DNA from: Candidatus Colimorpha enterica
Lineage (GTDB): Bacteria > Bacillota > Clostridia > Oscillospirales > CAG-272
Assembly: GCA_000433515.1 (NCBI GenBank)
Contig: FR891151.1
Location: forward strand, 1 to 43,625
Length of the DNA stretch: 43,625 nucleotides
Reading direction: 5' to 3'
Part shown: positions 7,823-24,307 of the stretch, piece by piece
How the letters are laid out: every line of letters starts with the position of its first letter
Numbering within the stretch: the stretch's first letter is position 1
Translations under genes and position numbers: made by a program
The notes under the pieces: generated by a model
Databases searched by the model: none
What the model was told of the DNA's origin: nothing
Seen by the model: the letters and a program-made list of their open reading frames with translations, nothing else

Positions 7823-9449
7823 TCAGATCACTGACAAAGGGCACAGAACGAGAGTTCTGAGCCCTTTGACCTTTACAAAGGAACAAAAAAGCAGTATAAT
7901 AGTAGTATAAAAGGAACAAAAAGAAGCCCGGAGGGACAGCGATGTTTACGGAAAGAAGCGTGAAGCAGGTCAGGCTTGAGATAGTAGTATTGGAAGAGCT
8001 CGTACCACAGGATCACCTGTTGAGAAAGATTGATGCGAGCATAGATTTCAGCTTTATCAACAGGATCTGCAAGCCGTATTACTGCGAGAATAACGGACGC
8101 CCTGCTATCGAGCCGGAGGTTCTTTTCCGTATGCTGTTCATAGGATATTTGTACGGTATCCGCAGCGAAATAAGGCTGCTGAAGGAGATCGAGGTGAACG
8201 TAGCCTACCGGTGGTTCATCGGATACGATCTGACCGAAAAGCTGCCCGATGTAAGCGTGATCTGGCAGAACAGACTCCGCAGATACAAGAACAGCGATGT
8301 TCCTCAACAGATATTCGATGAGATCGTTCGACAGGCAATGGCAAAGGGACTTGTGGGAGGAAAGATTCTGTATTCGGACAGTACACACCTGAAAGCCAAT
8401 GCAAACAAGAATAAGTTTGTGGAAAAGCAAGCTGAGGTTGAAGCTAAGGAATACATCGATGATCTGAATAAAGCGATCAACGAAGACCGCGCCGCACACG
8501 GCAAAAAGCCTTTCAGATTCGACGGCGATGAGGTCAAAGAAGAGAGCGGGGAAGAAAAAGAGAACTACTTTGACAATGACAGTCAGAGCAGCAAGAGCGG
8601 CGGAAGCGGTGAGATAAAGACAGTAAAGGCGAGTACAACAGACCCCGACAGCGGATTTATGCACAGAGACGGCAAACCGCAGGGCTTCTTCTATCTTGAC
8701 CACAGAACCGTAGACAGCAGGCATAACATCATCACCGACGTATTCGTAACACCCGGAAACACAAACGACGTAAAGCCTTATCTCGGAAGACTCAGAACAC
8801 AGATCGACAAATTTGGATTTGACGTAAAATAAGTAGGACTTGACGCAGGCTACAACGTTTCAAACATCTGCAAATATCTCTGCTACATGGGAATACAGGC
8901 GGCAATGGACAAGCGCCGCGGCTGCCAACAGAAAGGAAAATACGGAAAGTACAAATTCACTTACATACCCGAATGGGACGTATATATCTGCCCGGAGCAT
9001 AAGTATCTGGAATACGTAACCACAGACAGAAACGGTTACAAGGAATATAAGTGCAAGGGCGACAGATGAGCAAATTGTCCGAGACGGGAGGAATGTTTAA
9101 GTGCGAAGCAGGAAAGAAAGAACTTACGCCGTCACGTATGGGAAAATTACAAGGATATGGCGTATGCCTTTACCCATACGGAAAAGGGTAAGAACATTTA
9201 CAAGAGAAGAAAGGAAACGGTGGAACGCAGCTTTTCCGATTCCAAAGAATTACATGGCCTCCGTTATTGCCGTATGCGGGGGCTTTCTAAGGTTGCCGAG
9301 CAGTGCCTCCTCACTGCCGCCGTGCAGAATATGAAGAAAATCGCCTCCCTCTGCCGGAGGCATATCTTCAATTCCTTCGTGTTCTTTCTCTGCTTTCACA
9401 AAAATCAAAGCCCCTCTCTTGCCTGAGACGGGCTTTGTCAGTGATCTGA
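7823..9449 (+). mobile_element. IS1182-family (IS5-superfamily-like) insertion sequence, 1627 bp
   Basis: Terminal inverted repeats are tcagatcactgacaaag (7823-7839) and its complement (9433-9449). It is flanked by 18-bp direct repeats and contains one transposase reading frame. Confidence 0.85.
7942..9426 (+). pseudogene. IS1182-family DDE transposase interrupted by two in-frame stop codons (TAA 8830-8832, TGA 9067-9069)
   Basis: ORFs 7942-8832, 8887-9069 and 9157-9426 are all in one frame. The translation reads continuously through ...FGFDVK*VGLDAGYNV... and ...[14 protein letters not shown].... Family motifs are present ([45 protein letters not shown]). Confidence 0.85.
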
Positions 9450-9911: not shown

Positions 9912-11609
<1,698 letters not shown>

Positions 11610-11679: not shown

Positions 11680-11982
11680 TTATTGTAAACTTTCTTCTTT
11701 CATCATTCGCCAAATTTTCTGAAGAATGTTTTCCCGCGCGTTAGGATTGAAATGCCCGACAACCTCGTAAGTGGTATGACCTTCTTTTTCCTCAAAGTCA
11801 AAGGCGGATGCGGGGACATTGTAATTCACGGGAACTTTCTCACGCTCGGTATCGACTATGGGTACGTGAGGTGGGGGCGGATTTTCTGCCCACTTCTTTT
11901 GATATTCGGCATATCGTTCTTCGATATATTTATCTTTTTCAGATGGCATATCAAGTCCTTTTGATTTTGTTTTATCTATCAT
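11680..11982 (-). CDS. Small hypothetical protein between the relaxase and recombinase genes
   Basis: ATG 11982 has RBS AGAAAGGA 8 nt upstream. The longer 153-aa ORF in the track overlaps the relaxase 3' end and is unlikely. No recognisable domain. Confidence 0.5.
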   Translation of the reverse strand: MIDKTKSKGLDMPSEKDKYIEERYAEYQKKWAENPPPPHVPIVDTEREKVPVNYNVPASAFDFEEKEGHTTYEVVGHFNPNARENILQKIWRMMKEESLQ

Positions 11983-13072
11983 TGCGGTCATCCTTTCTCT
12001 TTTTCTCCTCTCTTGCTTGCTGAACAATCTGCGGGAACTCGATGCGCTCGACAGTCTTTTGAATATCATCACTGCGGTCATAAATATCTTTGCACATTGC
12101 ATATTCCTTACGAAGCGGCTTGAGCTTGTCCGAGATAGCAAAGATTTGTTCGCGTATTGGCTGCATCTTGGCGGGATCCTTCATCCACCGCATCTTGTTC
12201 CGGAACTTCTGCTGCTCCTTATAAAGCACATCCATTTGTGCACGAACCTTGAGCGCGTGTTGTATGAGATCATCCTTTGTATCAAGGAAATACTTGCCGA
12301 GGAACTTCGCCTGCTCCGAGTACATGCGGGCACGGCGTACGTCCTCTTTAATGGCTGCATAAGCTTCGGGATTCTTTGGGATCACCTTGGGTATCACACC
12401 AAGAAGATAACAGTAATGGAGATAGAGTGCGTAAAGACCTCTCGGCTTTTCACGTAAGGTCGGCTCATAATACGTGATCGGTGTCCATTGACGAGCACGC
12501 GCATTGTTTCTTATCCTCGCTTCAATATCCTCCTCGGTATATCCCGTACCGAGCTTGTCCAAGCGAAAGAATTTATCATAGCCGTATGGCTTGATGCGAA
12601 GGAACTTCCCGCGCTGCTCGATCGTATAGCCAAGGCTTCGCATACGGTTGTAAAAGTTCTTGATGATAAATTCTTGCTTTGCCACCGCGTCGATATCGGC
12701 GCGTATCTGATCTCGCATCGTGGGTATGCCTTTCTTTTCGGCGTGAACCTCTGCGATGTGCTTGTGCTTATCCTTGCTTGGATTTTCGATCACCGACAAA
12801 CCGTACTCCCTGCAAAGTCTATCTGAGGTGTCGCGCATCAGCTTGTAAGTAGCGTTGCAATCGTGATACCGCCTCCCCGAAAATCCCGAAGCCGATATGC
12901 AGAAATGATTGTGCACGTGTCCTCTATCGATATGGGTGGCAACGATAATTGGAAAGTCTTCGCCCCACAGTTCGTTGGCGAGCTGAACACCGATGGCGTG
13001 GGCGGTGTCTGCATCTACTTCACCGGGCTTGAAGGATTGGTATCCGTGGTAGGCTTTCATACTCATCATCAC
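11972..13072 (-). CDS. MobA/VirD2-type relaxase (Relaxase/mobilisation nuclease domain), apparently lacking its N-terminal ~70 aa
   Basis: His-cluster motif VATHIDRGHVHNHFCIS. The ORF begins at ...KAYHGYQSFKPGEVDADTAHAIG. In relatives, as I recall them, this corresponds to an internal IAYQIRQSFKPGEI block that follows the catalytic-Tyr segment. Confidence 0.75.
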   Translation of the reverse strand: MMMSMKAYHGYQSFKPGEVDADTAHAIGVQLANELWGEDFPIIVATHIDRGHVHNHFCISASGFSGRRYHDCNATYKLMRDTSDRLCREYGLSVIENPSKDKHKHIAEVHAEKKGIPTMRDQIRADIDAVAKQEFIIKNFYNRMRSLGYTIEQRGKFLRIKPYGYDKFFRLDKLGTGYTEEDIEARIRNNARARQWTPITYYEPTLREKPRGLYALYLHYCYLLGVIPKVIPKNPEAYAAIKEDVRRARMYSEQAKFLGKYFLDTKDDLIQHALKVRAQMDVLYKEQQKFRNKMRWMKDPAKMQPIREQIFAISDKLKPLRKEYAMCKDIYDRSDDIQKTVERIEFPQIVQQAREEKKRKDDRNDR

Positions 13073-14149: not shown

Positions 14150-14764
14150 CTACCTCCTTTTCTTCAAGCGGTGCATTACGCAGACCGCAACTCCTTGTAT
14201 CTTTAGATCTCGCGGATATATGTCGGGATAGGTTTCTTTATCCTCGTTGCAAGAACGGAGAATGTATCTGCCGTTATCAATAACAAGCTCCTTGAGATTG
14301 TTAAGACCTTCATAAAGAGCAACAACGTAATCTCCGTCGCTTGCGGTATTTTGCTTGCGAATAACAACGTAGTCGCCTTCGTTCACTCCGGCGTCGATCA
14401 TAGAGTCACCCTTTGCGATCAGCACGAAAAACTCTCCCGTGCCGACTAAGCTTTCGGGGAGACGGATATACTCGATGACTTCCTCTGTTTCTTCTTCACC
14501 CTCGCCGCAACGGACGTAACCGAGAACGGGAGCTGAGGCATGGCGCGATTCCATATCGATACGTTTAGTGGAGATCGACTTGCGCCCGTTGTATTCAAGA
14601 TTGCCGCTTTCTTTGAGCGAGAGCAGATAACGATGCACGGTTGCCAAAGCAATTCCCGTGCCCTCCGCGATAGTTCTCACGGCAGGAATCTCGTTATATT
14701 CATTGTAATACCCGTCGATGAAATCAAGTATCACACTCTTTTTCGATTCGTCTTTTCTTCGCAT
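14150..14764 (-). CDS. LexA-like repressor (winged HTH + S24 peptidase autocleavage domain)
   Basis: Start at ATG 14764 with GGAGG 5 nt upstream. N-terminal wHTH (IPAVRTIAEGTGIALATVHRYL). S24 motifs are IAKGDSMIDAG (Ser nucleophile) and NNLKEL (Lys). The position aligned by eye to the LexA Ala-Gly scissile bond reads VRCGEG. Confidence 0.85.
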   Translation of the reverse strand: MRRKDESKKSVILDFIDGYYNEYNEIPAVRTIAEGTGIALATVHRYLLSLKESGNLEYNGRKSISTKRIDMESRHASAPVLGYVRCGEGEEETEEVIEYIRLPESLVGTGEFFVLIAKGDSMIDAGVNEGDYVVIRKQNTASDGDYVVALYEGLNNLKELVIDNGRYILRSCNEDKETYPDIYPRDLKIQGVAVCVMHRLKKRR

Positions 14765-14775
14765 AACGCCTCCAA

Positions 14776-14790
14776 GAAACAAAATGTTTC
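14776..14790. promoter_or_regulatory. Palindromic operator O1 GAAAC-AAAAT-GTTTC
   Basis: Perfect 5-5-5 inverted repeat between the -10 and the RBS of the LexA-like gene. Confidence 0.55.
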
Positions 14791-14841: not shown

Positions 14842-14856
14842 GAAAATATTTGTTTC
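14842..14856. promoter_or_regulatory. Operator-like O2 GAAAA-TATTT-GTTTC
   Basis: Same 5-5-5 architecture as O1 with one half-site mismatch. It lies between the two divergent promoters, 8 nt upstream of the -35 of the exonuclease promoter. Confidence 0.4.
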
Positions 14857-14864
14857 ATTTGTGC

Positions 14865-14893
14865 TTGAAAAATTCATAAAAATATGATATAAT
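14865..14893 (+). promoter_or_regulatory. Near-consensus sigma-A promoter of the exonuclease-BRCT gene
   Basis: TTGAAA, a 17-nt spacer, then TGaTATAAT. Confidence 0.7.
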
Positions 14894-14927: not shown

Positions 14928-16634
14928 ATGAAAGTAACATTTTTTGACGTTGAATATGCCAACGTTCGAAACAAATCGATATGTCAAATCGGTATTTTGA
15001 GCAGAGATTTAGATAATCCTAACGCAGAGGTCGATAAATTGGATCTTTTTGTAAATCCCGAAGATGGATTTGACGATAACTGTGTTCGCATCCACGGTAT
15101 CACGAGCGATACTGTTAAGGGCGCTCCCTCGTTAAATAACATTTGGGACGATATCGAACAGTATTTTACGAATGCGGTTATCATTGGGCACAACGTTGCT
15201 TCTGCCGACTTGGATGCTCTGCACAAGAATTTAGTGAGATACGGTATTGAAGTCCCTGAAATCTATTACATTTGCACCTATCAGCTTGCGAAGGAGCTTG
15301 TTCCTTCCTTTGCCGTTTCCGATTACGCGCTCGGCACTTTGTGTAATTTCTTTGGCATCACAATTGCAGAAAAGCACAACGCTTTTTACGATGCTTGTGC
15401 CTGCTCCGATCTTTTGGACAAGTTGGTTGACTATTCGAAAATTAACATCGAAAGCGAAATTCAAAGATATATTCCGAACGATAACGCAGACTTTATCGCT
15501 TACATATCCAATGCTTCGCTCAAAAAGGATATTCATGCCCTATACGGTATGATCAGAGGATTCACATTGGACTCCGAAATATCGGAGGATGAGAAGGAAT
15601 ATATTAAATCGTGGAGAGGAACATTCGCTCCCTATACATCTCACGCGGATGTATCTACCATCATTTCTGTCATCGATAATATTTTGGCAGATGATGTCAT
15701 CACTCTTGACGAAGTAAATACGCTTCAGCTGGAGATTAGAAGACACCTCGATATCGTTTCTACATCTACGATTACTCTTGCTACACAGATTTTGAATGGT
15801 ATTATCAAGGGCATTATCACCGACGAAGAAATTACGTATGAAGAATGTCAAAATCTCCGTGCTTGGTTGTACGAAAACAATTATCTCTCCGGTCATTTCC
15901 CGTTTGATAAATTATATAGTGAGATCGAAGTCGTTTTGGCTGACGGGGTGTTAACTCCCGCCGAAGCGCTTTCTATCAAGAACGAAATTAGCAATCTTTT
16001 AGATCCCGTTGAGTCCTTGCGAAAGGATGTAATGTCTCTCAAGGGTAAGCGCATTTGCCTCAGTGGTAATTTTGCCTTTGGTCAAAAATCTGCCGTTGAG
16101 CAGTATATCATTGAACAAGGTGGTATCATTGAGACAAGTGTCAAGAAAACAACGGACATCTTGGTTGTCGGTGATTACGAATGTAAATCCTATTCCAACG
16201 GAACCTACGGCACAAAGGTAAAGAAAGCGATTGAGTACAACGGCAAGGGCTGTAATATCCAAATTTCCAAGGAAAGTGATATTATTAAGCCGGCGAAATC
16301 CTTTAGCGAGGTCTTGTTTGGTTTTATTGATGCAAGCGGACTTGGTGATGCCGAGGTTTATAAAAAGGCACAACTTCCTCGTCAGATGATGTCAAAAATC
16401 AAATGCGTACCCAATTATCTCCCTTCCAAGCAAAACATTTGCGCTTTTGCAATTGCATTGGAACTTAACGTGGAACAGACCAACGAATTGCTTTCTTCAG
16501 CAGGCTATGTTCTTTCAAGAAACTTTGAGTTCGATAGAATTATTGAGGACGCCATTGCCCACGGCAATTACGATATTTTCAATATCAACGAAAAAATGTA
16601 TGAGCTCGGTATTTCGTGGCTCGGCGCAAAATAA
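14928..16634 (+). CDS. Multidomain protein: DEDDh (DnaQ-like) 3'-5' exonuclease, TerB-like helical repeats, BRCT domain, C-terminal XRE-like HTH
   Basis: ATG 14928 follows GGGGG.
- Exo motifs: FFDVEYAN (D-x-E), GHNVASADLDAL, HNAFYDACA (H-x4-D).
- Internal repeats: LYGMIRGFTLDSEISEDEKEYIKSW and ILNGIIKGIITDEEITYEECQNLRAW.
- BRCT-like: LKGKRICLSGNF...GGIIETSVKKTTDILVVGD.
- C-terminal: PSKQNICAFAIALELNVEQTNELLSSAGYVLS. Confidence 0.75.
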   Translation: MKVTFFDVEYANVRNKSICQIGILSRDLDNPNAEVDKLDLFVNPEDGFDDNCVRIHGITSDTVKGAPSLNNIWDDIEQYFTNAVIIGHNVASADLDALHKNLVRYGIEVPEIYYICTYQLAKELVPSFAVSDYALGTLCNFFGITIAEKHNAFYDACACSDLLDKLVDYSKINIESEIQRYIPNDNADFIAYISNASLKKDIHALYGMIRGFTLDSEISEDEKEYIKSWRGTFAPYTSHADVSTIISVIDNILADDVITLDEVNTLQLEIRRHLDIVSTSTITLATQILNGIIKGIITDEEITYEECQNLRAWLYENNYLSGHFPFDKLYSEIEVVLADGVLTPAEALSIKNEISNLLDPVESLRKDVMSLKGKRICLSGNFAFGQKSAVEQYIIEQGGIIETSVKKTTDILVVGDYECKSYSNGTYGTKVKKAIEYNGKGCNIQISKESDIIKPAKSFSEVLFGFIDASGLGDAEVYKKAQLPRQMMSKIKCVPNYLPSKQNICAFAIALELNVEQTNELLSSAGYVLSRNFEFDRIIEDAIAHGNYDIFNINEKMYELGISWLGAK

Positions 16635-16635
16635 T

Positions 16636-16680
16636 TGTCACTTTCAAAGATACCAAAGTTAATTTAATATTTGTTATAAT
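16636..16680 (+). promoter_or_regulatory. Box-promoter P1: 19-bp box TGTCACTTTCAAAGATACC + 20 nt + TGtTATAAT
   Basis: The box (16636-16654) starts 2 nt after the exonuclease stop codon. The extended -10 is at 16672-16680. Confidence 0.55.
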
Positions 16681-16716
16681 GCACTCACAAGGTAAGTCCT
16701 TGTGGGTGCATTTTTT
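16681..16716 (+). terminator. Rho-independent terminator gcactcacaagg-taagt-ccttgtgggtgc + ATTTTTT
   Basis: 12-bp stem with one mismatch and a T-run. It begins immediately after the P1 -10 hexamer. Confidence 0.7.
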
Positions 16717-16728
16717 GATGATAGCAAA

Positions 16729-16773
16729 TGTCACTTTCAAAGAGACCACACTTGAACGGATATTTGTTATAAT
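16729..16773 (+). promoter_or_regulatory. Box-promoter P2: TGTCACTTTCAAAGAGACC + 20 nt + TGtTATAAT, upstream of the NERD gene
   Basis: Box at 16729-16747 and -10 at 16768-16773. The spacing is identical to P1 and P3. Confidence 0.6.
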
Positions 16774-16827
16774 TAAGGCACAAAAGGAAAATACATTAAA
16801 AATCATTTAAAACAAAGGAGAATCACA

Positions 16828-17901
16828 ATGAAAAGAGCAGAAGATTTTATCAGAGAAATGGAGAGCAGCAACGTATTGATGTCGAAGGAAGTTACCTTCA
16901 ACGAGTATGTATCCGAGCTTCTTGGATTTCAAAATGTTGTTTGCAAAATGGTAGCGGGAGATGCTTACCACGAGCAAATGCGCATCGATGAAGCGCTGTT
17001 TCTCATGGAATCCACCGCACGTAAAAATGATGTTCGCAATCATCCTGCGGTACATAACGGTATCATCACAATGAAAAAGCTTTCTAAGGAATTGGCAATT
17101 ACTATGTCTGGTGCCAAGGGTGAAAGTCTTGTTTCCAAAACCTTGGAATATTTAAACAGACCTAACACCAAGGTGTATCGCAATGTTTACATTACCGACG
17201 GGCAGGATGAAACGGAGCTTGATGCTATTGTTTTGACGGATTCCGGCGTGATCATTTTGGAGGTTAAGAAGGTTAAGTCCGATCTTACACTTACCGAAGA
17301 CGGTAGAATGGTATTTGCAAGTGATGAGTGCTATGATAAGATCCCTCTTGGTGAAAAAATGGCAATCAAGCGCAAACTCTTGAAGAACGCACTTGAAAAA
17401 GCCGTTGCTTCTACTGGTTTGGATATCCCCGTATACGTTGACAGTTACATCGTATTTTCTGCACCCAAGGGACAGTACATCAAAATTGATGATAGATACC
17501 GTAAGGAAAAGCATTGCTTCCGCACGGGTCTGAATCGGAAAATTGAGAACTACCTCGGTTGTGCTTACTACAAGCATGATCAGCTTGATCAGCTTGATAA
17601 GATCTTTTCCGAAATGGAATCTAACGTAAAGCGCTTTGAAACAGAACTCAACTATGATGATGTTCGTCGTAGTCTTGCCGAGGCAATGGTGGTTCTTCAG
17701 GGTGAACCCGAAAGTACCGCGGAGGCAAAGTCAGCGAATCCTGAGGAGCGCAAGTCTAAGGTGATTGATCCCAAGATTGTCCGTGAAAAGTTGGAACAGA
17801 AAGAGAAGAAAAATATCGGCTTTGATTATATTGCTGCCGGTGCCGCCGCTTGTGTTCTCGGATTTGCTATGATGCTCGGTCTTGGATTTAAGCGCGCATA
17901 A
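16828..17901 (+). CDS. NERD (nuclease-related domain) protein with C-terminal transmembrane helix
   Basis: RBS AAAGGAGA. NERD-type block GAKGESLVSKTLEYL...ELDAIVLTDSGVIILEVKKVK. The C-terminus YIAAGAAACVLGFAMMLGLGF is hydrophobic. Confidence 0.75.
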   Translation: MKRAEDFIREMESSNVLMSKEVTFNEYVSELLGFQNVVCKMVAGDAYHEQMRIDEALFLMESTARKNDVRNHPAVHNGIITMKKLSKELAITMSGAKGESLVSKTLEYLNRPNTKVYRNVYITDGQDETELDAIVLTDSGVIILEVKKVKSDLTLTEDGRMVFASDECYDKIPLGEKMAIKRKLLKNALEKAVASTGLDIPVYVDSYIVFSAPKGQYIKIDDRYRKEKHCFRTGLNRKIENYLGCAYYKHDQLDQLDKIFSEMESNVKRFETELNYDDVRRSLAEAMVVLQGEPESTAEAKSANPEERKSKVIDPKIVREKLEQKEKKNIGFDYIAAGAAACVLGFAMMLGLGFKRA

Positions 17902-17902
17902 T

Positions 17903-17947
17903 TGTCACTTTCAAAGATACCTTTTAGACAAACAATAATGATATACT
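17903..17947 (+). promoter_or_regulatory. Box-promoter P3: TGTCACTTTCAAAGATACC + 20 nt + TGaTATACT, upstream of two small ORFs
   Basis: The box starts 2 nt after the NERD stop codon, as for P1. A partial box, aatgtcacc, follows the -10. Confidence 0.6.
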
Positions 17948-17990
17948 AATGTCACCAGGAAAACAAATTGAAATATGAAGGAGAAAATTT

Positions 17991-18167
17991 ATGAAATTAT
18001 TGAGTAGTATCATTGGATTAATCAAATGGTTGGTTGGGGCGGCACTCTTCTTGGTTGTGTTTTTATTATGTCTCATATTTGTCCCCGGAATTTTCGATGA
18101 GATTATCATAGCCATTATTGCTGTAGCGGCCGCAATTGCAAATCCGCCTTCAATAGAGGGTGATTAA
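17991..18167 (+). CDS. 58-aa hydrophobic small protein (two predicted TM segments); not in the ORF track
   Basis: RBS GAAGGAGAA lies 6 nt before the ATG. Product: MKLLSSIIGLIKWLVGAALFLVVFLLCLIFVPGIFDEIIIAIIAVAAAIANPPSIEGD. Confidence 0.6.
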   Translation: MKLLSSIIGLIKWLVGAALFLVVFLLCLIFVPGIFDEIIIAIIAVAAAIANPPSIEGD

Positions 18168-18182
18168 ATCAAAGGAGGTAAG

Positions 18183-18353
18183 ATGAGTATGAAAATCAAT
18201 GTTATGAAATCAGGCGACAAGGTACTTAATGTAACAAGTGAGTTTGTTGCCATTGAAAGAGTTAGCGGTGAGGTAGATATCCTACCGTTAATCCGTCAAG
18301 AGTCGGGAGTTTGGTTAGACACAAAAAACATCTTAATATGCCTGAATGGTTGA
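18183..18353 (+). CDS. 56-aa small soluble protein; not in the ORF track
   Basis: RBS AAAGGAGGT lies 4 nt before the ATG, 15 nt after the preceding stop. Product: MSMKINVMKSGDKVLNVTSEFVAIERVSGEVDILPLIRQESGVWLDTKNILICLNG. Confidence 0.6.
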   Translation: MSMKINVMKSGDKVLNVTSEFVAIERVSGEVDILPLIRQESGVWLDTKNILICLNG

Positions 18354-18401
18354 AACAATACATATAATATGTGAATTCAATTTTTCGGTTTGAAATCTTA
18401 C

Positions 18402-18440
18402 GTTGCAACAACCATAATCATTGGTTGTTGCAACTTTATT
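18402..18440 (+). terminator. Rho-independent terminator after the small-ORF pair
   Basis: gttgcaacaacca-taatcat-tggttgttgcaac followed by TTTATT. Confidence 0.7.
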
Positions 18441-18450
18441 GCTACATATA

Positions 18451-18479
18451 TTGACTTTTACTACATTTTGTGATACAAT
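18451..18479 (+). promoter_or_regulatory. Sigma-A promoter of the HTH/esterase/ABC operon
   Basis: TTGACT, a 17-nt spacer, then TGaTACAAT. Confidence 0.65.
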
Positions 18480-18504
18480 AAACGCAAATGAGTAGGAGGG
18501 TTAT

Positions 18505-18981
18505 ATGAATAGCTATAATGTTAAACAAGTAGCTGACCTGTTAAAAACCAATCCCGAGACCGTTCGACGCTGGATTAGATCTGGTAAATTGGTCGCACAA
18601 CAGGATTCTCGTAAGGGTGGAAATATTATTTGCGAAAGTGCTTTGAGAGAATTTGTAAAATCAACACCTAAGTATGCTGGAACTACAACCGCCTTTCTTT
18701 TGGGAACGGCTGCTTTGTCTACCGCCTTAATCGGAGGCATTGTCGCACATAAACTGTCTGCCGAGGAAAACATAAAAAATGCCCATATTTCCGCAAATGA
18801 CATATGCGAATTTGTATCTACAGAAATTGAAGCACTTTCAAGCTCTGTTTCAAACAAAAGAAAAACTATCCGTCATTTGGAGTCGGAGATAGAAAACGAA
18901 AGCAAAAAGATAGAGGAATTGAGAGAACTTCTTAAAACACTTTCAACTTTATCCGATGGAGGGGAAAAAGATGAAAGATAA
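18505..18981 (+). CDS. Excisionase/MerR-type HTH (HTH_17-like) protein fused to a TM segment and a C-terminal coiled coil
   Basis: RBS GTAGGAGGG. N-terminus YNVKQVADLLKTNPETVRRWIRSGKL. Hydrophobic TTTAFLLGTAALSTALIGGIVA. Heptad-like EIEALSSSVSNKRKTIRHLESEIENESKKIEELRELLKTL. Confidence 0.65.
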   Translation: MNSYNVKQVADLLKTNPETVRRWIRSGKLVAQQDSRKGGNIICESALREFVKSTPKYAGTTTAFLLGTAALSTALIGGIVAHKLSAEENIKNAHISANDICEFVSTEIEALSSSVSNKRKTIRHLESEIENESKKIEELRELLKTLSTLSDGGEKDER

Positions 18982-20140
18982 TCTGCTAAATGAACACCTC
19001 CTAAAAATAACCGAGTATAAAGCCATCGGTGAGCTTCCCAATCCATTCATGTTTGATAATGCAAACTACGTTTCATCAATAGACGAGTGGGAACGCCGGA
19101 AGCGAGAAATCGCAAAAACGACAATAGATGTGCAATTTGGAACATTACCACCAGCCCCCGAAATATTTTGGGTTGAACAACTGAATTGTGGTAAAGAACA
19201 TCGATCATATAAAATTCATGCTGGTACAAAAGAAAAACAAATCTCTTTTGTAGTAAAACTTATTATGCCAAAGGGCGAGAGTCGTCCAATAATCATTGAT
19301 GGAGATATGTGCGCAGGTTATTTTATGAAAGAAGATTTCATAAATGCCGCAGTTTCCAGAGATATCGGTTGGCTTTTGTTTGATAGAACAGAACTTGCAC
19401 ATGATCTTAAGGAAGAACGAGGTCGCGCTGGTGCACTATACGATATCTATCCTGAATACACTTTCGGTGCATTGGGTGCTTGGGCTTGGGGGTATTCACG
19501 TTGTGTTGACGCTGTAATAAAACTCAATCTTCCGCAAATTGATTGCTCATGCATCGTAGCCACCGGACATTCAAGAGGTGGTAAAGCAACGATGCTTGCA
19601 GGAGCAGTTGATGAAAGAATTGCTATCGTTAATCCAAACGAAGCTTGCCTTGTCGGTGGAGGATGTTATCGAATAGAAATGGTAGGAGACTATCCCGACC
19701 TTTTGCCTTGGAGAAGCGAAACCTTAAAGGACATATGTAAGGAAACTGATTTTTGGATCGGTCCAACAATGAAGAACTATATCGGACGCGAAAATGAATT
19801 GCCCTTTGATACACATTTTCTGAAAGCGTTAGTTGCTCCGCGAATTTTATTTGTATCCGAAGCGGCTGGCGATATATGGGCAAATCCTATAGGCTCTTGG
19901 ATGACTACTGAAGCTGCTAAAGAAGTCTACGAGTTTTTAGGCGCAGGTCCTAATATCTATTGGTATTTTAGAACCGGAACTCATTATCACAAAGCAGAAG
20001 ATATAGAAATGCTTGTCAATATTATCTGTCACATCCATGACAACGAGGATATCAGTGATAGCTTTTATAAGTTACCCTTTTCTCCGCCCGAATATCTATT
20101 TAGTTGGAGAAAGCCTAATTTCAAATTAAAAGGAGAATAA
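18971..20140 (+). CDS. Alpha/beta hydrolase, CE15 glucuronoyl-esterase-like
   Basis: The preferred start is ATG 18971, with GGAGGGG 6 nt upstream; it overlaps the preceding gene by 11 nt. The nucleophile elbow is VATGHSRGGKATMLAGAVDERIA (G-x-S-R-x-G-K as in CE15). Confidence 0.6.
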   Translation: MKDNLLNEHLLKITEYKAIGELPNPFMFDNANYVSSIDEWERRKREIAKTTIDVQFGTLPPAPEIFWVEQLNCGKEHRSYKIHAGTKEKQISFVVKLIMPKGESRPIIIDGDMCAGYFMKEDFINAAVSRDIGWLLFDRTELAHDLKEERGRAGALYDIYPEYTFGALGAWAWGYSRCVDAVIKLNLPQIDCSCIVATGHSRGGKATMLAGAVDERIAIVNPNEACLVGGGCYRIEMVGDYPDLLPWRSETLKDICKETDFWIGPTMKNYIGRENELPFDTHFLKALVAPRILFVSEAAGDIWANPIGSWMTTEAAKEVYEFLGAGPNIYWYFRTGTHYHKAEDIEMLVNIICHIHDNEDISDSFYKLPFSPPEYLFSWRKPNFKLKGE

Positions 20141-20144
20141 AATT

Positions 20145-21209
20145 ATGAAACGAATTTTGTCTTTAGTTGTTGCTATGCTTATGATCATCAGTTTGACTGC
20201 TTGCAATAGCAATCAAGGTTCAACGGATAAAGAAACCAAGAAAATTATAGATGCCGCTGGAGACGAGGTTATCATTCCTGCCAAAGTAGATACAGTAATC
20301 AATCTTGTTACATACGGATGCCAAGTTATGGTTGGGCTTGGATTTGGTGATTATCTTGTCGGTATTAATGTAGATGCTATCGAATCTCCATGGATGGCTG
20401 AAATGTATCCGAGAACCAACGAAATTGAAAAATTTGACCAAGAAGCAAGTGCTGAAATTCTTTTGAGAGCAAATGCTGACATTGTTCTTGTTCAAGAAGC
20501 AGAGCAAGCTCGCGATTTGAGAAGCAAGGGTGTTACGGCAGTCACCTTTTCATATTGGTCTTTGGAGGATATGAAGGCAACCATTAAAATGTTAGGGGAT
20601 ATTTTGGGTGGAGATGCTGTAGAAAAGTGTAATAAATATATTGCCTATCTCGACGGAAACATTGCATTGGTCGAAAACACTCTCAAAGATAAGGTACTTG
20701 AAAAAGAAACTCTCTATTATATAAACGGTGTTTCTAATAAAGGGCTATATAAAACTGCTGGAAAGGGTTCTACAAATTCTGCCTGCGCTCAACTTTCCCA
20801 TACCATATTTGCAACAGATTCACTGATAGAATCCCCTGCTAATAAGGTTGATAGCGAAGCAATCTTATCGGTGAATCCTCAAAATATCATAATTGGTGGA
20901 AAATATCAGCATGTCCTCTACGACGAATTGATGGTAACATCTGAATGGTCTAACAACACTGCTGTAAAAAACGGGCATGTATTCAAGGTTCCAATGGGTA
21001 TTTCTGCTTGGAACAGATACGGAATAGAGATTGCCCTAATGATTACATGGACAAGTGCTGTTGTTTATCCTGAGTACTTCGAATATGATCTTGTAAAGGA
21101 AACCATCGATTTTTACAAGGAATTTACCGGGATTACATTGACAGAGCAGCAAGCTCAGTATATTTTAGAGGGGTTGACGCCAAGTGGAGAAAAAGAAATT
21201 ACAAATTGA
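20145..21209 (+). CDS. ABC importer substrate-binding lipoprotein, iron-siderophore/cobalamin (FecB/BtuF, TroA-like) class
   Basis: Lipobox ISLTAC. The size and pattern are typical of periplasmic-binding-protein type 2. It precedes a FecCD permease and an ATPase. Confidence 0.7.
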   Translation: MKRILSLVVAMLMIISLTACNSNQGSTDKETKKIIDAAGDEVIIPAKVDTVINLVTYGCQVMVGLGFGDYLVGINVDAIESPWMAEMYPRTNEIEKFDQEASAEILLRANADIVLVQEAEQARDLRSKGVTAVTFSYWSLEDMKATIKMLGDILGGDAVEKCNKYIAYLDGNIALVENTLKDKVLEKETLYYINGVSNKGLYKTAGKGSTNSACAQLSHTIFATDSLIESPANKVDSEAILSVNPQNIIIGGKYQHVLYDELMVTSEWSNNTAVKNGHVFKVPMGISAWNRYGIEIALMITWTSAVVYPEYFEYDLVKETIDFYKEFTGITLTEQQAQYILEGLTPSGEKEITN

Positions 21210-22236
21210 AAATCTTTATCAAGGCAAAAAGAAAAGCCAACTTTGGATTTTCGCTTTATTAATCATTACTGTTTTTCTTGCCGTTGTGTCCTTGTTTATA
21301 GGTCAATACGGAATGTCATTCTTTGATACTGTTAAAAGTGTTGTGGGCATCAATAGCGGCGTAGAAGCTGAAAACATCAGAAAAATCATTTTGAATATTC
21401 GTGTTCCAAGAACTGTAGCATCGATTGTAATTGGCGGAATATTGGCAATTGCCGGACTCACCTATCAATGTATTTTCCGAAACACATTGGTTTCGCAAGA
21501 CATCTTGGGTGTGAGCACAAGTTCTTGCGTTGGCGCTGCTCTTGGCATCGTATTAGGATGGAGTACCCTTCATATTCAGTTTTTGGCATTCGCTCTTGGT
21601 GTGTTGAATATTTGTCTGATATTTTTGCTATCTTCACGAATAAAGCTTGATAAGACGCTTTCTTTGATTTTGTCCGGCATATTAATCGGAGGAGCCATGT
21701 CGTCTGTGCTTGCTCTTATTAAATATATGGCGAATCCGGAAGTGCATTTACAAGCAATCGTTTTCTGGACGATGGGAGATATTTCTTCAATAACGCTGGA
21801 TCAGTTAGGATTTATTGCTGTGCCTGTGATTGTCTGTACCGTTATACTCTTCGCAAAGAGCTGGGATCTTAACTATTTCTGCTTCGTTGATAGCGAAGCA
21901 AAAAGCATGGGCTTTAACCTCGCTCGTAATAGAATTATTTTTCTTGCATGTGCAACTGTTTTGGTTGCTTCGGCCGTTTCTATTTCGGGATCCATAGGAT
22001 GGGTTGGTCTTGTTATTCCTCAATTGGTACGACTGTTAATTGGGACAAACAATCGCTATACAATGCCACTCTCGTTTTTAATGGGAAGCTCCTTTTTGCT
22101 TTTGGTAGATGTTCTTAATCGTTTGATTTCCGCTGCAGAACTGCCAGTAAGTATTTTATCCGGTTTGCTTGGATTGCCGTTGTTTGTTGTATGCTGGCTC
22201 ATAAACGCTAAACATAGTGAGGTGGAAAGCAAATGA
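21184..22236 (+). CDS. FecCD-family ABC permease
   Basis: About 9-10 hydrophobic segments, with blocks such as RVPRTVASIVIGGILAIAGLTYQCIFRN. The start codon is uncertain (GTG 21184 overlaps the SBP gene). Confidence 0.75.
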   Translation: MEKKKLQIENLYQGKKKSQLWIFALLIITVFLAVVSLFIGQYGMSFFDTVKSVVGINSGVEAENIRKIILNIRVPRTVASIVIGGILAIAGLTYQCIFRNTLVSQDILGVSTSSCVGAALGIVLGWSTLHIQFLAFALGVLNICLIFLLSSRIKLDKTLSLILSGILIGGAMSSVLALIKYMANPEVHLQAIVFWTMGDISSITLDQLGFIAVPVIVCTVILFAKSWDLNYFCFVDSEAKSMGFNLARNRIIFLACATVLVASAVSISGSIGWVGLVIPQLVRLLIGTNNRYTMPLSFLMGSSFLLLVDVLNRLISAAELPVSILSGLLGLPLFVVCWLINAKHSEVESK

Positions 22237-23024
22237 TTCAAGTCAAGAATTTATCATTTAGATATAAGAACAATCTCCCTTTGATACTTGATGATTTGTC
22301 GTTTTCCATCGAGCGTGGATCTATTCTTTCGATTTTAGGCAAAAATGGTGTAGGCAAAACAACATTTATCAAATGCTTAACGTCTGAGATAAAAAACTAC
22401 AGCGGAACCATACTTGTTGATTCGAAGGATGTTCGACAATTATCCATAAGTGAATTATCAAAATCAATTGCTGTTGTAGCCTCAAACAATCCCTGTTATC
22501 AAAACTTATGCGTTGCAGACTTTCTCGTCACAGGATTTGCTAATAAACTTACAGCTCTCAAAGCGCCGAGAAAAAACGAATATGAAAAAGCATGTTCTGT
22601 CTTGGATGAATTAGGTCATGTAGATTTGCTTAATCGAGCTATCTTTGAACTATCATCCGGTGAATTGCAAATTGTAAAAATAGTACGTGCAATACTTCAA
22701 AATCCGAAGGTTATAGTTTTTGATGAACCTACTTCTAATCTTGACATTAAAAATCAATTGATTGTCCTAAATCAAATTACAGGACTTTCGCAAAGAGGAT
22801 ATACCGTAATCACAACAACTCATAATCCGGGACAATCAATAGAGCTTGGAGGAATGGTATTGATGATGTCCGGGTCGCATCAAATCTTTGGCAAAACCGC
22901 TGAAGTGCTTACGGCAGAAAATCTTCGAAACACATACAACCTCAATGTTTCGATTGAAGAAGGGCGGTTCCGGCAGTATGCCTCTTTTGAAGATGAATCT
23001 GGAATTCATCGGTTAATATATTAA
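22233..23024 (+). CDS. ABC transporter ATP-binding protein (FecE/FepC-like)
   Basis: Walker A GKNGVGKTT, signature LSSGELQ, Walker B VIVFDEP. A 4-nt ATGA overlap with the permease gene. Confidence 0.85.
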   Translation: MIQVKNLSFRYKNNLPLILDDLSFSIERGSILSILGKNGVGKTTFIKCLTSEIKNYSGTILVDSKDVRQLSISELSKSIAVVASNNPCYQNLCVADFLVTGFANKLTALKAPRKNEYEKACSVLDELGHVDLLNRAIFELSSGELQIVKIVRAILQNPKVIVFDEPTSNLDIKNQLIVLNQITGLSQRGYTVITTTHNPGQSIELGGMVLMMSGSHQIFGKTAEVLTAENLRNTYNLNVSIEEGRFRQYASFEDESGIHRLIY

Positions 23025-23048: not shown

Positions 23049-23087
23049 ATAGCCGTGTGGACATTTTGTCCACACGGCTATGTTTTT
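23049..23087. terminator. Bidirectional terminator between convergent genes
   Basis: Perfect 14-bp stem atagccgtgtggac/gtccacacggctat with a T-run. Confidence 0.75.
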
Positions 23088-23586
23088 AGTTTTCTTTTTC
23101 ACTTACAACAGCAAGCATTAGTTTTGCTCCAAGTTTGAAGGCATACTCAAATATAGCTGCTTCTGCAAGACTCACATACTCGTTCCAACAATCTTGGTAC
23201 TTTTCAAAGATGACTTTTTGTTCGTCGGTTAATAGCTTTTCTAAATCCTCATCATGCCTTGCTATATAACTGATGAGTTCCTTCATTTCCTTCGTGTTGG
23301 TTCGGCTATCTTCTTGCGGTATGATATTTCCGTGCCATAGTTCATTGATGATCGACCTCATTGATAGACCACCTCCTGCAGGACGATTTCTTCCGGAACT
23401 GCCTTGCCAACGAAATGCAAAGGACTTCTTTGTTTTCGTTTGTGTGATTCCTGTTTTGGCGTACACTTTATTCTTGATAGAGGAAAGTGTATCAGCCGAA
23501 ACATCAGACGCAGCATTTTGACTTACGAGTTTTTCAAGCTCGTTTGCGGACGCTTCATCGAAAATATTATTTAGTGTTTTTTTCAT
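23086..23586 (-). CDS. Composite ORF: anti-sigma-like N-terminal segment fused in frame to a small helical protein that retains its own RBS and ATG (23361)
   Basis: The N-part MKKTLNNIFDEASANELEKLV...SSIKNKVYAKTGI resembles proteins encoded after clostridial ECF-like sigma genes. The internal GGAGGTGG lies 7 nt before ATG 23361 and opens MRSIINELWHGNIIPQE... Confidence 0.55.
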   Translation of the reverse strand: MKKTLNNIFDEASANELEKLVSQNAASDVSADTLSSIKNKVYAKTGITQTKTKKSFAFRWQGSSGRNRPAGGGLSMRSIINELWHGNIIPQEDSRTNTKEMKELISYIARHDEDLEKLLTDEQKVIFEKYQDCWNEYVSLAEAAIFEYAFKLGAKLMLAVVSEKEN

Positions 23587-24143
23587 ACCTCATTACCTCC
23601 AAACAATTTACGAAGTTTGTTTAAGGCTCTGTGTGTTCGGGTATCAACATTTGATACGGTCAGACCGACAGCCTTGGCAATATCCTTGGAGGACTCTCCG
23701 TAATAAAACTTACGGAAAATAATACTCGAGTCAGGCTCGCCGAGATCTTCGACCGCCTTGATAACCTCACGCCTAAGTTCATCTTCGGCGAGTTCGCTAT
23801 CGATTATTACGTCATCCGCAACCTGCAAAAGTGATTGCTCATCATCGAGGGAGATGCCTCCTTCGAGACTTCGTCTCTTAGAAACGTTGATCGCTTGATT
23901 ACGTGCGATGACGCACAGATAGGTTTTTATACTCGATATCTTAGGATCGTAGTCGGACAGCTCCGCATAAAATTTGCTGAATACGTCTGCCACACAGTTT
24001 TCAATATCGGATGATACATAATAAGAATCGTCAAGTTTGCTTTTGACAACAGCATAAACAAGACCTGTGTACTGATTCATTAATTGTTCCATTCCGGCGT
24101 TCGGGTCTTTATGTAGTAGTCGAAGTAACTTGTTATCCTCCAT
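23583..24143 (-). CDS. Sigma-70 family (ECF-like, regions 2 and 4) RNA polymerase sigma factor
   Basis: Start at ATG 24143 after AGAGGTGAG. Region 2-like LMNQYTGLVYAVVKSKL...DIENCVADVF. Region 4 HTH SSKDIAKAVGLTVSNVDTRTHRALNKLR. An ATGA overlap with the downstream ORF. Confidence 0.8.
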   Translation of the reverse strand: MEDNKLLRLLHKDPNAGMEQLMNQYTGLVYAVVKSKLDDSYYVSSDIENCVADVFSKFYAELSDYDPKISSIKTYLCVIARNQAINVSKRRSLEGGISLDDEQSLLQVADDVIIDSELAEDELRREVIKAVEDLGEPDSSIIFRKFYYGESSKDIAKAVGLTVSNVDTRTHRALNKLRKLFGGNEV

Positions 24144-24307
24144 ATTCTCACCTCTGTCTTTGAATCGATTCACTATTATATACAATCGAGAACGCAAAAT
24201 CTTACACATCAATTCGAACCTATATAAAATTTTATCAAAAATTATTTAAAAGGCAAGATTTGAAGTTGCAAATCCCAAACACATAAGAAATCGAAAATTT
24301 GTTGAGA

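Follow-up and report, generated by a model that had tools for sequence, protein, structure and literature searches.

The lambda cI protein activates transcription at PRM by contact with RNA polymerase, and the controller (C) proteins of restriction-modification (R-M) systems activate promoters without a −35 element. In the RRNPP regulators (ComR-comS, PlcR-papR, Rgg-shp), an inverted repeat stands in for the −35 element, a set distance before an extended −10, and is bound by an XRE-type helix-turn-helix (HTH) domain; the regulator gene is followed immediately by its target gene, a layout that resembles the one described here. The present locus was found in a 43,625-nucleotide stretch from Candidatus Colimorpha enterica (assembly GCA_000433515.1, contig FR891151.1, forward strand; this whole stretch is referred to as the window), where a 19-bp box occurs three times downstream of a gene for a DEDDh exonuclease-BRCT protein. 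Sequence comparison and structural modelling make it likely that this box is the operator of the HTH domain carried by the exonuclease protein itself, which would act from it as an activator of the genes for a membrane NERD protein and for small proteins.

The locus combines a Cro/C1 (XRE) fold with a dyad operator centred at about −42, a poor or absent −35 and a fixed distance to the −10, as do lambda cI at PRM and class II promoters (~−41.5) in general. Unlike in cI, the HTH is here the C-terminal domain of an exonuclease-BRCT protein of 568 aa, the regulator gene precedes the site, no sign of a lysogeny switch was seen and the sigma contact is only putative. The C proteins C.AhdI and C.Esp1396I are structural matches of the domain (TM 0.65-0.76 to target, root-mean-square deviation (rmsd) 1.9-3.8 Å) and also bind palindromic boxes around the −35 position as small XRE dimers, but they are stand-alone proteins of ~80 aa that control the promoter of their own operon from a site before their gene, whereas the window locus has no R-M genes and an unrelated box sequence. 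In the RRNPP regulators the HTH is N-terminal, in contrast to the C-terminal HTH of the window protein, which comes without a TPR peptide-binding domain or signalling-peptide logic. The CapH/CapP, DdrO/IrrE and BrxR/CapW systems share with this locus an XRE-type HTH beside defence-like genes, with CapH and DdrO among the top folds, and a DNA-damage or DNA-end signal is plausible here. There, the regulators either repress until a partner metalloprotease inactivates them or are WYL-domain proteins, while the window system has no conserved partner protease and a putative DEDDh-BRCT sensor fused to the HTH. The N-terminal part of the window protein is shared with PDC-S48 and with the shorter exonuclease-BRCT proteins (458 aa) of Clostridia, but this short class has no HTH domain and no box promoters.

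The genes of the locus and its predicted promoter elements are:

14928..16634, plus strand: protein with DEDDh exonuclease, helical-repeat, BRCT and C-terminal HTH domains (568 aa), the proposed one-component sensor-regulator
16296..16631, plus strand: XRE/Cro-type HTH domain with two extra helices, ~112 C-terminal residues of that protein and proposed reader of the box
16636..16654, plus strand: box 1, TGTCACTTTCAAAGATACC, proposed operator of promoter P1
16672..16680, plus strand: extended −10 of P1, TGTTATAAT, predicted +1 at A16687
16729..16747, plus strand: box 2, TGTCACTTTCAAAGAGACC, proposed operator of promoter P2, 93 bp after box 1
16765..16773, plus strand: extended −10 of P2, TGTTATAAT, predicted +1 at A16780
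16828..17901, plus strand: NERD-domain protein with a hydrophobic C-terminal tail (Pfam NERD, 3.5e-12), predicted target of P1 and P2
17903..17921, plus strand: box 3, TGTCACTTTCAAAGATACC, proposed operator of promoter P3
17939..17947, plus strand: extended −10 of P3, TGATATACT, predicted +1 at A17954
17991..18167, plus strand: hydrophobic (membrane) peptide of 58 aa, predicted target of P3, identical in the related locus L010
18183..18353, plus strand: small protein of 56 aa, second gene of the P3 unit, 3′-truncated relative to L010
18402..18434, plus strand: terminator-like hairpin from a terminator scan, ending the P3 unit

The box reads TGTCACTTTCAAAGA(T/G)ACC and contains the dyad GTnnCTTT-N-AAAGnnAC. 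It is a perfect palindrome (TGTCACTTTGAAAGTGACA) at the related locus L035, and the diverged locus L020 has three boxes of the form TGTCACTTT(C/G/T)AAAG(A/T)TACC, with the central base free as expected for a dyad. Three exact matches to the pattern TGTCACTTTCAAAGAKACC are present in the window against 0.03 expected by chance, a count reached in 0 of 100 dinucleotide-preserving shuffles, and a window search allowing up to three mismatches found no box beyond these copies. Each box is followed after exactly 20 nt by a −10 hexamer (TATAAT at 16675-16680 and 16768-16773, TATACT at 17942-17947), every hexamer has TG at −15/−14 (16672-73, 16765-66 and 17939-40), and a −35 sought as TTGACA at 16-18 nt spacing matched just 1-3 of 6 positions at best. 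An earlier note on this DNA had described a triplicated box at an invariant 20 nt from extended −10 elements without a −35, which is confirmed by the coordinates, the shuffles and the −35 scoring. Its placement of boxes 1 and 3 just past stop codons also stands, with a single base between the TAA stops (exonuclease 16632-34; NERD 17899-901) and the boxes. If transcription begins 7 nt past the −10, as predicted, the box spans −51 to −33 with its centre at about −42, in agreement with the class II-type position also proposed there. A reading of the box as an RNA hairpin in the 3′ untranslated region was rejected because the dyad leaves a 1-nt loop and cannot fold. The box-like sequence TGTAGTTTTGAAATTGACC at 10797-10815, within the gene for the serine recombinase, on the strand opposite to its coding strand and without a −10 at +20, is probably a chance match.

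The exonuclease protein has homologues of two classes, one of ~568 aa with an extra C-terminal ~110 residues and one of ~458 aa that lacks them, the short class being 53-58% identical over 79% of the protein. Apart from L068 as the single exception, all full-length loci whose 3′ flank could be read have the box, the 20-nt gap and the extended −10 at or close behind the stop codon (the window, L009, L010, L018, L020, L034, L035, L067, L070, L071, L072, L073, L074, L092, L093 and L094), while the layout was found in none of the ~19 short-class loci checked. L010 is a near-identical copy of the window locus from an Anaerotruncus metagenome-assembled genome of the human gut, and L067 and L070 are small chromosomal islands. 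A search of IMG/VR for exonuclease homologues, asking whether the module is phage-borne, gave only one homologue, of the short class. These related loci support the earlier view of the boxes as promoter-associated sites of a private regulon. Scanning one genome per species for the exact box gave 30 matches, five of which are homologous loci, all in Clostridia or Eubacteriales and with a −10 at +20. The other 25 and 16 further matches from viral contigs lack a TATAAT-like hexamer at +20 and serve as chance controls. Such chance matches fall in coding sequence, so the box is not a common repeat.

Readings of the box as a site of recombination or a junction between cassettes, or as a generic repeat lying near promoters by accident, are very improbable. 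The cargo behind the boxes does differ between otherwise near-identical loci, as between the window and L018 or L012. However, the homology between the window and L018 spans box, spacer, −10 and ~25 nt further, so that the break is not at the box; no integron-type integrase is associated with the boxes; outside these loci the box was found only as chance matches; and a fixed distance and orientation relative to the −10 in 51 promoters, described below, require a transcriptional explanation. The modules are nonetheless cassette-like, as had been suggested, in that cargo varies between related loci behind the same box-promoter.

The minimal loci point to the regulator. L072, in a chromosomal context, consists of the regulator, one box and a 79-aa gene, and L073 has boxes before an AAA+/M41 protease gene and before a YbjN-VWA-kinase operon, with no HTH gene other than the regulator among its called genes. 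The fused HTH is thus the sole common DNA-binding candidate. No co-conservation with the box across related loci was found for the LexA-like gene, the relaxase or the sigma factor of the window, two of which, the LexA-like gene and the sigma factor, had been brought into the circuit before. These two and the DUF6809 gene are placed as follows:

14150-14782, minus strand: LexA-like S24 protein
23086-23586, minus strand: DUF6809 protein
23583-24212, minus strand: ECF-like sigma factor

As a −35-type element for this sigma factor, or for the small sigma region-4 protein of related islands, the box is highly implausible. The sigma gene and the DUF6809 gene do lie in the island, and small Sigma70_r4 proteins close the islands in L067, L070 and L094; but the box is palindromic, as sigma −35 elements are not, TGnTATAAT is a housekeeping-type (sigma-A) −10, 20 nt is unsuited to a −35/−10 pair, and box promoters stand at L072, L073, L095 and L100 without a nearby sigma gene. 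It is hardly credible that the divergent LexA-like repressor (~14150-14764) uses the box as its operator in an SOS-type circuit. Its gene adjoins the exonuclease gene divergently in the window, yet it is present only there and in L010 and absent from the other box-bearing loci (L018, L020, L067, L070-L074, L092 and L093), and its own promoter region contains no box and other palindromes. Of the regulators entertained in the earlier note, the class II activator holds as to position, the alternative sigma factor does not, and the repressor is kept as a lesser rival; the LexA connection drawn there falls away. The regulator that it missed is most likely, judging from these comparisons, the exonuclease protein itself through its C-terminal XRE-type HTH.

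The listed open reading frame of the exonuclease gene starts at TTG 14907, but homologues are 568 aa long and begin MKVTFFD, and the coding sequence most likely begins at ATG 14928. Pfam places RNase_T (6.7e-22) and BRCT (9e-07) domains in the protein, and the full-length AlphaFold2 model has four domains, of which the exonuclease resembles PolC, DnaQ, TREX and ExoX structures. The N-terminal 320 residues match the PADLOC candidate PDC-S48 (2e-31). The window protein has an intact exonuclease motif III (H-x4-D, residues ~157-162), whereas four homologues, P0036, P0039, P0042 and P0072, have lost it, so that some members are probably catalytically dead sensors. At least two of the four still have box promoters, which suggests that catalysis is not essential for regulation.

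Searches of Pfam, NCBIfam and PDB sequences to name the C-terminal domain returned nothing significant, and fold comparison alone gave an answer. The AlphaFold2 model of the domain has a pLDDT of 94.5, and the Foldseek PDB matches listed are nearly all XRE/Cro-C1 HTH proteins or domains (RghR, DdrO, SinR, CapH, C.AhdI, C.Esp1396I, 434 Cro and Stl). The probability is ~1 to DdrO-N, SinR-N, CapH-N, C.AhdI and 434 Cro, with TM-scores to the target of 0.7-0.8 and rmsd of ~2 Å over 60-70 residues. The last ~110 residues can be modelled with confidence as an XRE/Cro-type HTH with the five-helix Cro/C1 fold.

The domain belongs to a large HTH family for which Pfam has no model and to which it is ~50% identical; a profile built from it matched 5180 cluster representatives at E ≤ 1e-10. 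Among the best matches listed, the domain always stands at the extreme C-terminus, behind 0-440 other residues. The N-terminal partner is Macro in 42 of the 88 longer members scanned, with flavodoxin, Sel1, YebC, RNase_T and ASCH also represented, and some family members have only short N-terminal regions. At E ≤ 0.001, HTH_26 matches six and HTH_31 four of the 88. In their sequences the members look like one-component regulators, in which the input domain varies and the DNA-binding output domain is conserved.

The promoter rule extends across this family, whose box consensus is TGTCAC-N7-GTGAC(C/A). In L095, from gut Clostridia, the gene of a 193-aa member is followed behind its stop codon by TGTCGCTTTTGAAGCGACC, 20 nt and a −10, and a 177-aa member at the end of a Neobacillus prophage (L100) has TGTCGCTTTTAAAGCGACC in the same arrangement. 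As in members from phage contigs, these boxes are of the TGTCGC-N7-GCGACC type and the hexamer behind them is TAnnnT. An unbiased scan of phage contigs for TGTCGC-N7-GCGACC found TAnnnT at exactly +20 in 21 of 21 cases in the TGT..ACC orientation, and in only 2 of 21 in the reverse orientation. In total, 51 distinct promoters (30 from the exonuclease lineage and 21 from phage contigs) have a spacer of exactly 20 nt, the sequence of which is unconstrained (0.46 bits per position vs 1.35 for the box). Over the 30 related promoters, the −10 matches consensus at a mean of 5.4 of 6 positions and TGn is present in 24, while the −35 match averages 1.8 of 6 vs 2.55 at random positions and never reaches 4. 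In the same promoters a tCAcAA motif is conserved 5-10 nt past the −10 (predicted −1 to +4; 1.2-1.8 bits). It lies at 16681-16690, 16776-16784 and 17950-17958 in the window, is kept across lineages with differing boxes, and may reflect a preferred start site or a further recognition element.

The window promoters thus show two features of class II-type promoters, namely a site near −41.5, counted from predicted starts, and a weak or absent −35 with an intact −10. Given the centre at ~−42, the sub-random −35, the extended −10, the ACC end on the promoter side and the rigid 20-nt spacer, activation is favoured over repression, and the invariant spacer lends indirect support to a contact with RNA polymerase. 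The same protein and site could carry the opposite sign, which we consider unlikely. The HTH would then repress constitutive extended −10 promoters from an operator over −51 to −33, and a signal sensed by the exonuclease-BRCT part would release it, in the manner of CapH, DdrO and BrxR-type defence control. Repressors (DdrO, CapH, SinR, Stl and 434 Cro) are among the closest folds, toxic cargo is commonly held off by repression, and a near-consensus TGnTATAAT could initiate without an activator. If occlusion were the operator's only task, however, moving it by a few bases should do little harm. All 51 promoters nevertheless share the exact 20-nt spacer length, even though the sequence of the spacer has diverged. 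In addition, the box overlaps neither the −10 nor the +1 in any promoter, a −35 depleted below random is typical of activator-dependent promoters, and the orientation of the box is fixed.

Box and recognition helix also vary together in a comparison of 28 loci. Helices of the type DR(K/R)LFSKI pair with the half-site TGTCGC, (P/N/T)RQxxSKI with TGTCAC and SRQLM(S/H)(N/H)I with TGTAAA. At box position 5, Gln goes with A and Lys/Arg with G, and at position 6 Lys goes with a C:G pair and Asn/His with an A:T pair. Gln or Asn is commonly preferred with A and Lys or Arg with G, and the direction of the covariation fits these preferences.

Co-occurrence, the minimal loci, the HTH fold, the family-wide rule, the covariation and the fixed geometry all argue that the box is the cognate operator of the fused HTH. 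Several points weigh on the other side. The Foldseek E-values are weak (0.09-0.7) despite the probability of ~1, no Pfam HTH model matched the window domain even at E up to 10, and among the domains of five relatives three gave sub-threshold HTH matches (E 0.005-0.08) and two none. The helix classes are clades, so that the covariation amounts to only two or three independent lineage changes. P0009 (L092) has an altered helix, RQTFNKI, yet canonical boxes except at P1, and as a natural specificity swap it was set aside as uninformative for that reason. L068, which encodes P0072, has no box behind its gene and is the sole exception among readable full-length loci. The box might also be bound by a paralogue from the same HTH family, encoded at another place in the host genome, and an extended −10 promoter can fire without an activator, which makes repression from the same site possible. 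At L068 (11700-12158), the exonuclease gene and a terminator are followed by GTGCGAC..., which resembles the 5′ end of a group II intron.

In the activation mechanism that we propose, a dimer of the C-terminal XRE/Cro-type HTH would bind the 19-bp dyad, and the bound protein at ~−42 would contact RNA polymerase and activate a sigma-A-type promoter with an extended −10 but lacking a −35. P1 and P2 would drive the gene for the membrane NERD protein and P3 those for the two small proteins. The exonuclease-BRCT part would be the sensor of a one-component system, presumably for DNA ends, DNA damage or foreign DNA, and the variable cargo would be the output of this sensor-regulator.

P1 lies nested within the terminator that ends the exonuclease gene:

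16678..16718, plus strand: intrinsic terminator of the exonuclease gene from the terminator scan, with a hairpin at 16678-16712 (15-bp stem) followed by a T run

The 5′ arm of this hairpin holds the end of the P1 −10 together with the predicted P1 start, an overlap that had also been overlooked before. Read-through RNA across the terminator folds at −25.3 kcal/mol (z −6.3), while RNA starting at the predicted +1, 16687, retains a stem of just 6 bp with 5 unpaired nt before the U run. The terminator would thus halt read-through from the regulator gene before the NERD gene, and P1 transcripts, which lack the 5′ arm of the hairpin, should continue into it. The same nesting occurs with other stem sequences at L020, L035, L067, L070, L071 and L092 and at the phage loci L107 and L109. 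The distance from box 1 to box 2 is 93-94 bp in seven loci (the window, L009, L020, L067, L070, L092 and L094), although the terminator sequences in between differ. This is ~nine helical turns and puts both boxes on the same face of the DNA, and cooperative binding or looping between them is possible. If this reading is right, a promoter inside the terminator of the upstream gene is a compact device that blocks read-through and permits regulated initiation.

The region at ~13-25 kb is a low-GC island (0.38-0.43 vs 0.45-0.55 in the flanks). Further features in and beside it are:

within 7942-8832: DUF772 transposase open reading frame
9912-11579, minus strand: large serine recombinase with DUF4368
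11972-13072, minus strand: relaxase fragment matching only the C-terminal part of the MobA/VirD2 domain
18505-18981, plus strand: HTH_17 protein
18956-20140, plus strand: esterase
20145-23024, plus strand: FecCD-type ABC transporter

The upstream transposase, recombinase and relaxase suggest a decayed integrative mobilisable element beside the module. The coding sequence of the LexA-like protein probably starts at ATG 14764 rather than TTG 14782. The region between this gene and the exonuclease gene contains the related palindromes GAAACAAAATGTTTC at 14776-14790 and GAAAATATTTGTTTC at 14842-14856, both adjoining near-consensus sigma-A promoters (14832-14804 on the minus strand and 14865-14893 on the plus strand), and these may be operators of the LexA-like protein. 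Compared with L010 (1100-1977), the window (18330-18505) is without ~0.7 kb before the HTH_17 gene, including the end of the 56-aa gene; the missing part probably held one more small gene.

The cargo of the box promoters is varied and includes NERD proteins in six lineages, small membrane peptides, an IetA-like AAA+/M41 protease and a PD-T4-6/mad6-like kinase. A NERD gene stands behind box promoters also in L020, L067, L071, L074 and L092, and the 56-aa protein has a 55% identical homologue in L020. The 58-aa peptide gave no match in protein-family searches. In PADLOC-DB v2 the window NERD protein matches MkoA (1.8e-4) and PglW (4.5e-4) weakly, and neighbours in related loci match PDC-S01 (4e-140), PDC-S41 (3e-241), PD-T4-1 (2e-67), GajB-like helicases and GmrSD-like enzymes. 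With the defence-like cargo and neighbours and the PDC-S48 match, an inducible defence or abortive-infection module is plausible, as the earlier note had suspected of an undescribed system here.

In the phage loci L101-L142 from IMG/VR (e.g. L109 2506-3522 and L139 2500-4857), Macro proteins are fused to the same C-terminal HTH, and the box-promoter behind the Macro-HTH genes drives genes for a VWA protein and an ADP-ribosylglycohydrolase. This arrangement suggests that the phage Macro-HTH proteins are ADP-ribose-responsive regulators. A literature search on PDC-S48, exonuclease-BRCT-HTH proteins and Macro-HTH regulators found no description of the HTH family, the box or the architecture; a paper on DEDD diDNases was found, but it concerns a different subfamily.

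We raise only tentatively that the exonuclease-BRCT-HTH protein is the founding member of an undescribed type of inducible immunity, in which one polypeptide senses DNA ends and switches on toxic effectors. The DEDDh-BRCT part would sense foreign or damaged DNA ends, and a stereotyped promoter cassette behind the protein's own stop codon would drive swappable effectors (the membrane NERD nuclease, small membrane peptides, the IetA-like AAA+ protease and Ser/Thr kinases). The idea would extend to the HTH family of more than 5000 clusters, in which the Macro-HTH proteins of phages, the commonest, would respond in like manner to ADP-ribose signals.

Should the box be the operator of the fused HTH as proposed, this would be a large transcription-factor family that Pfam does not detect above threshold, with an operator code and a fixed promoter geometry from which the targets of thousands of such regulators could be read from sequence. 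Single-residue changes in the recognition helix, for instance Lys to Asn for TGTCAC to TGTAAA, would switch specificity, which may be of use in synthetic biology. The defence islands of gut Clostridia would contain a nuclease-type sensor fused to its own transcriptional output, with exchangeable effectors, and phages would carry a parallel set of Macro-HTH regulators.

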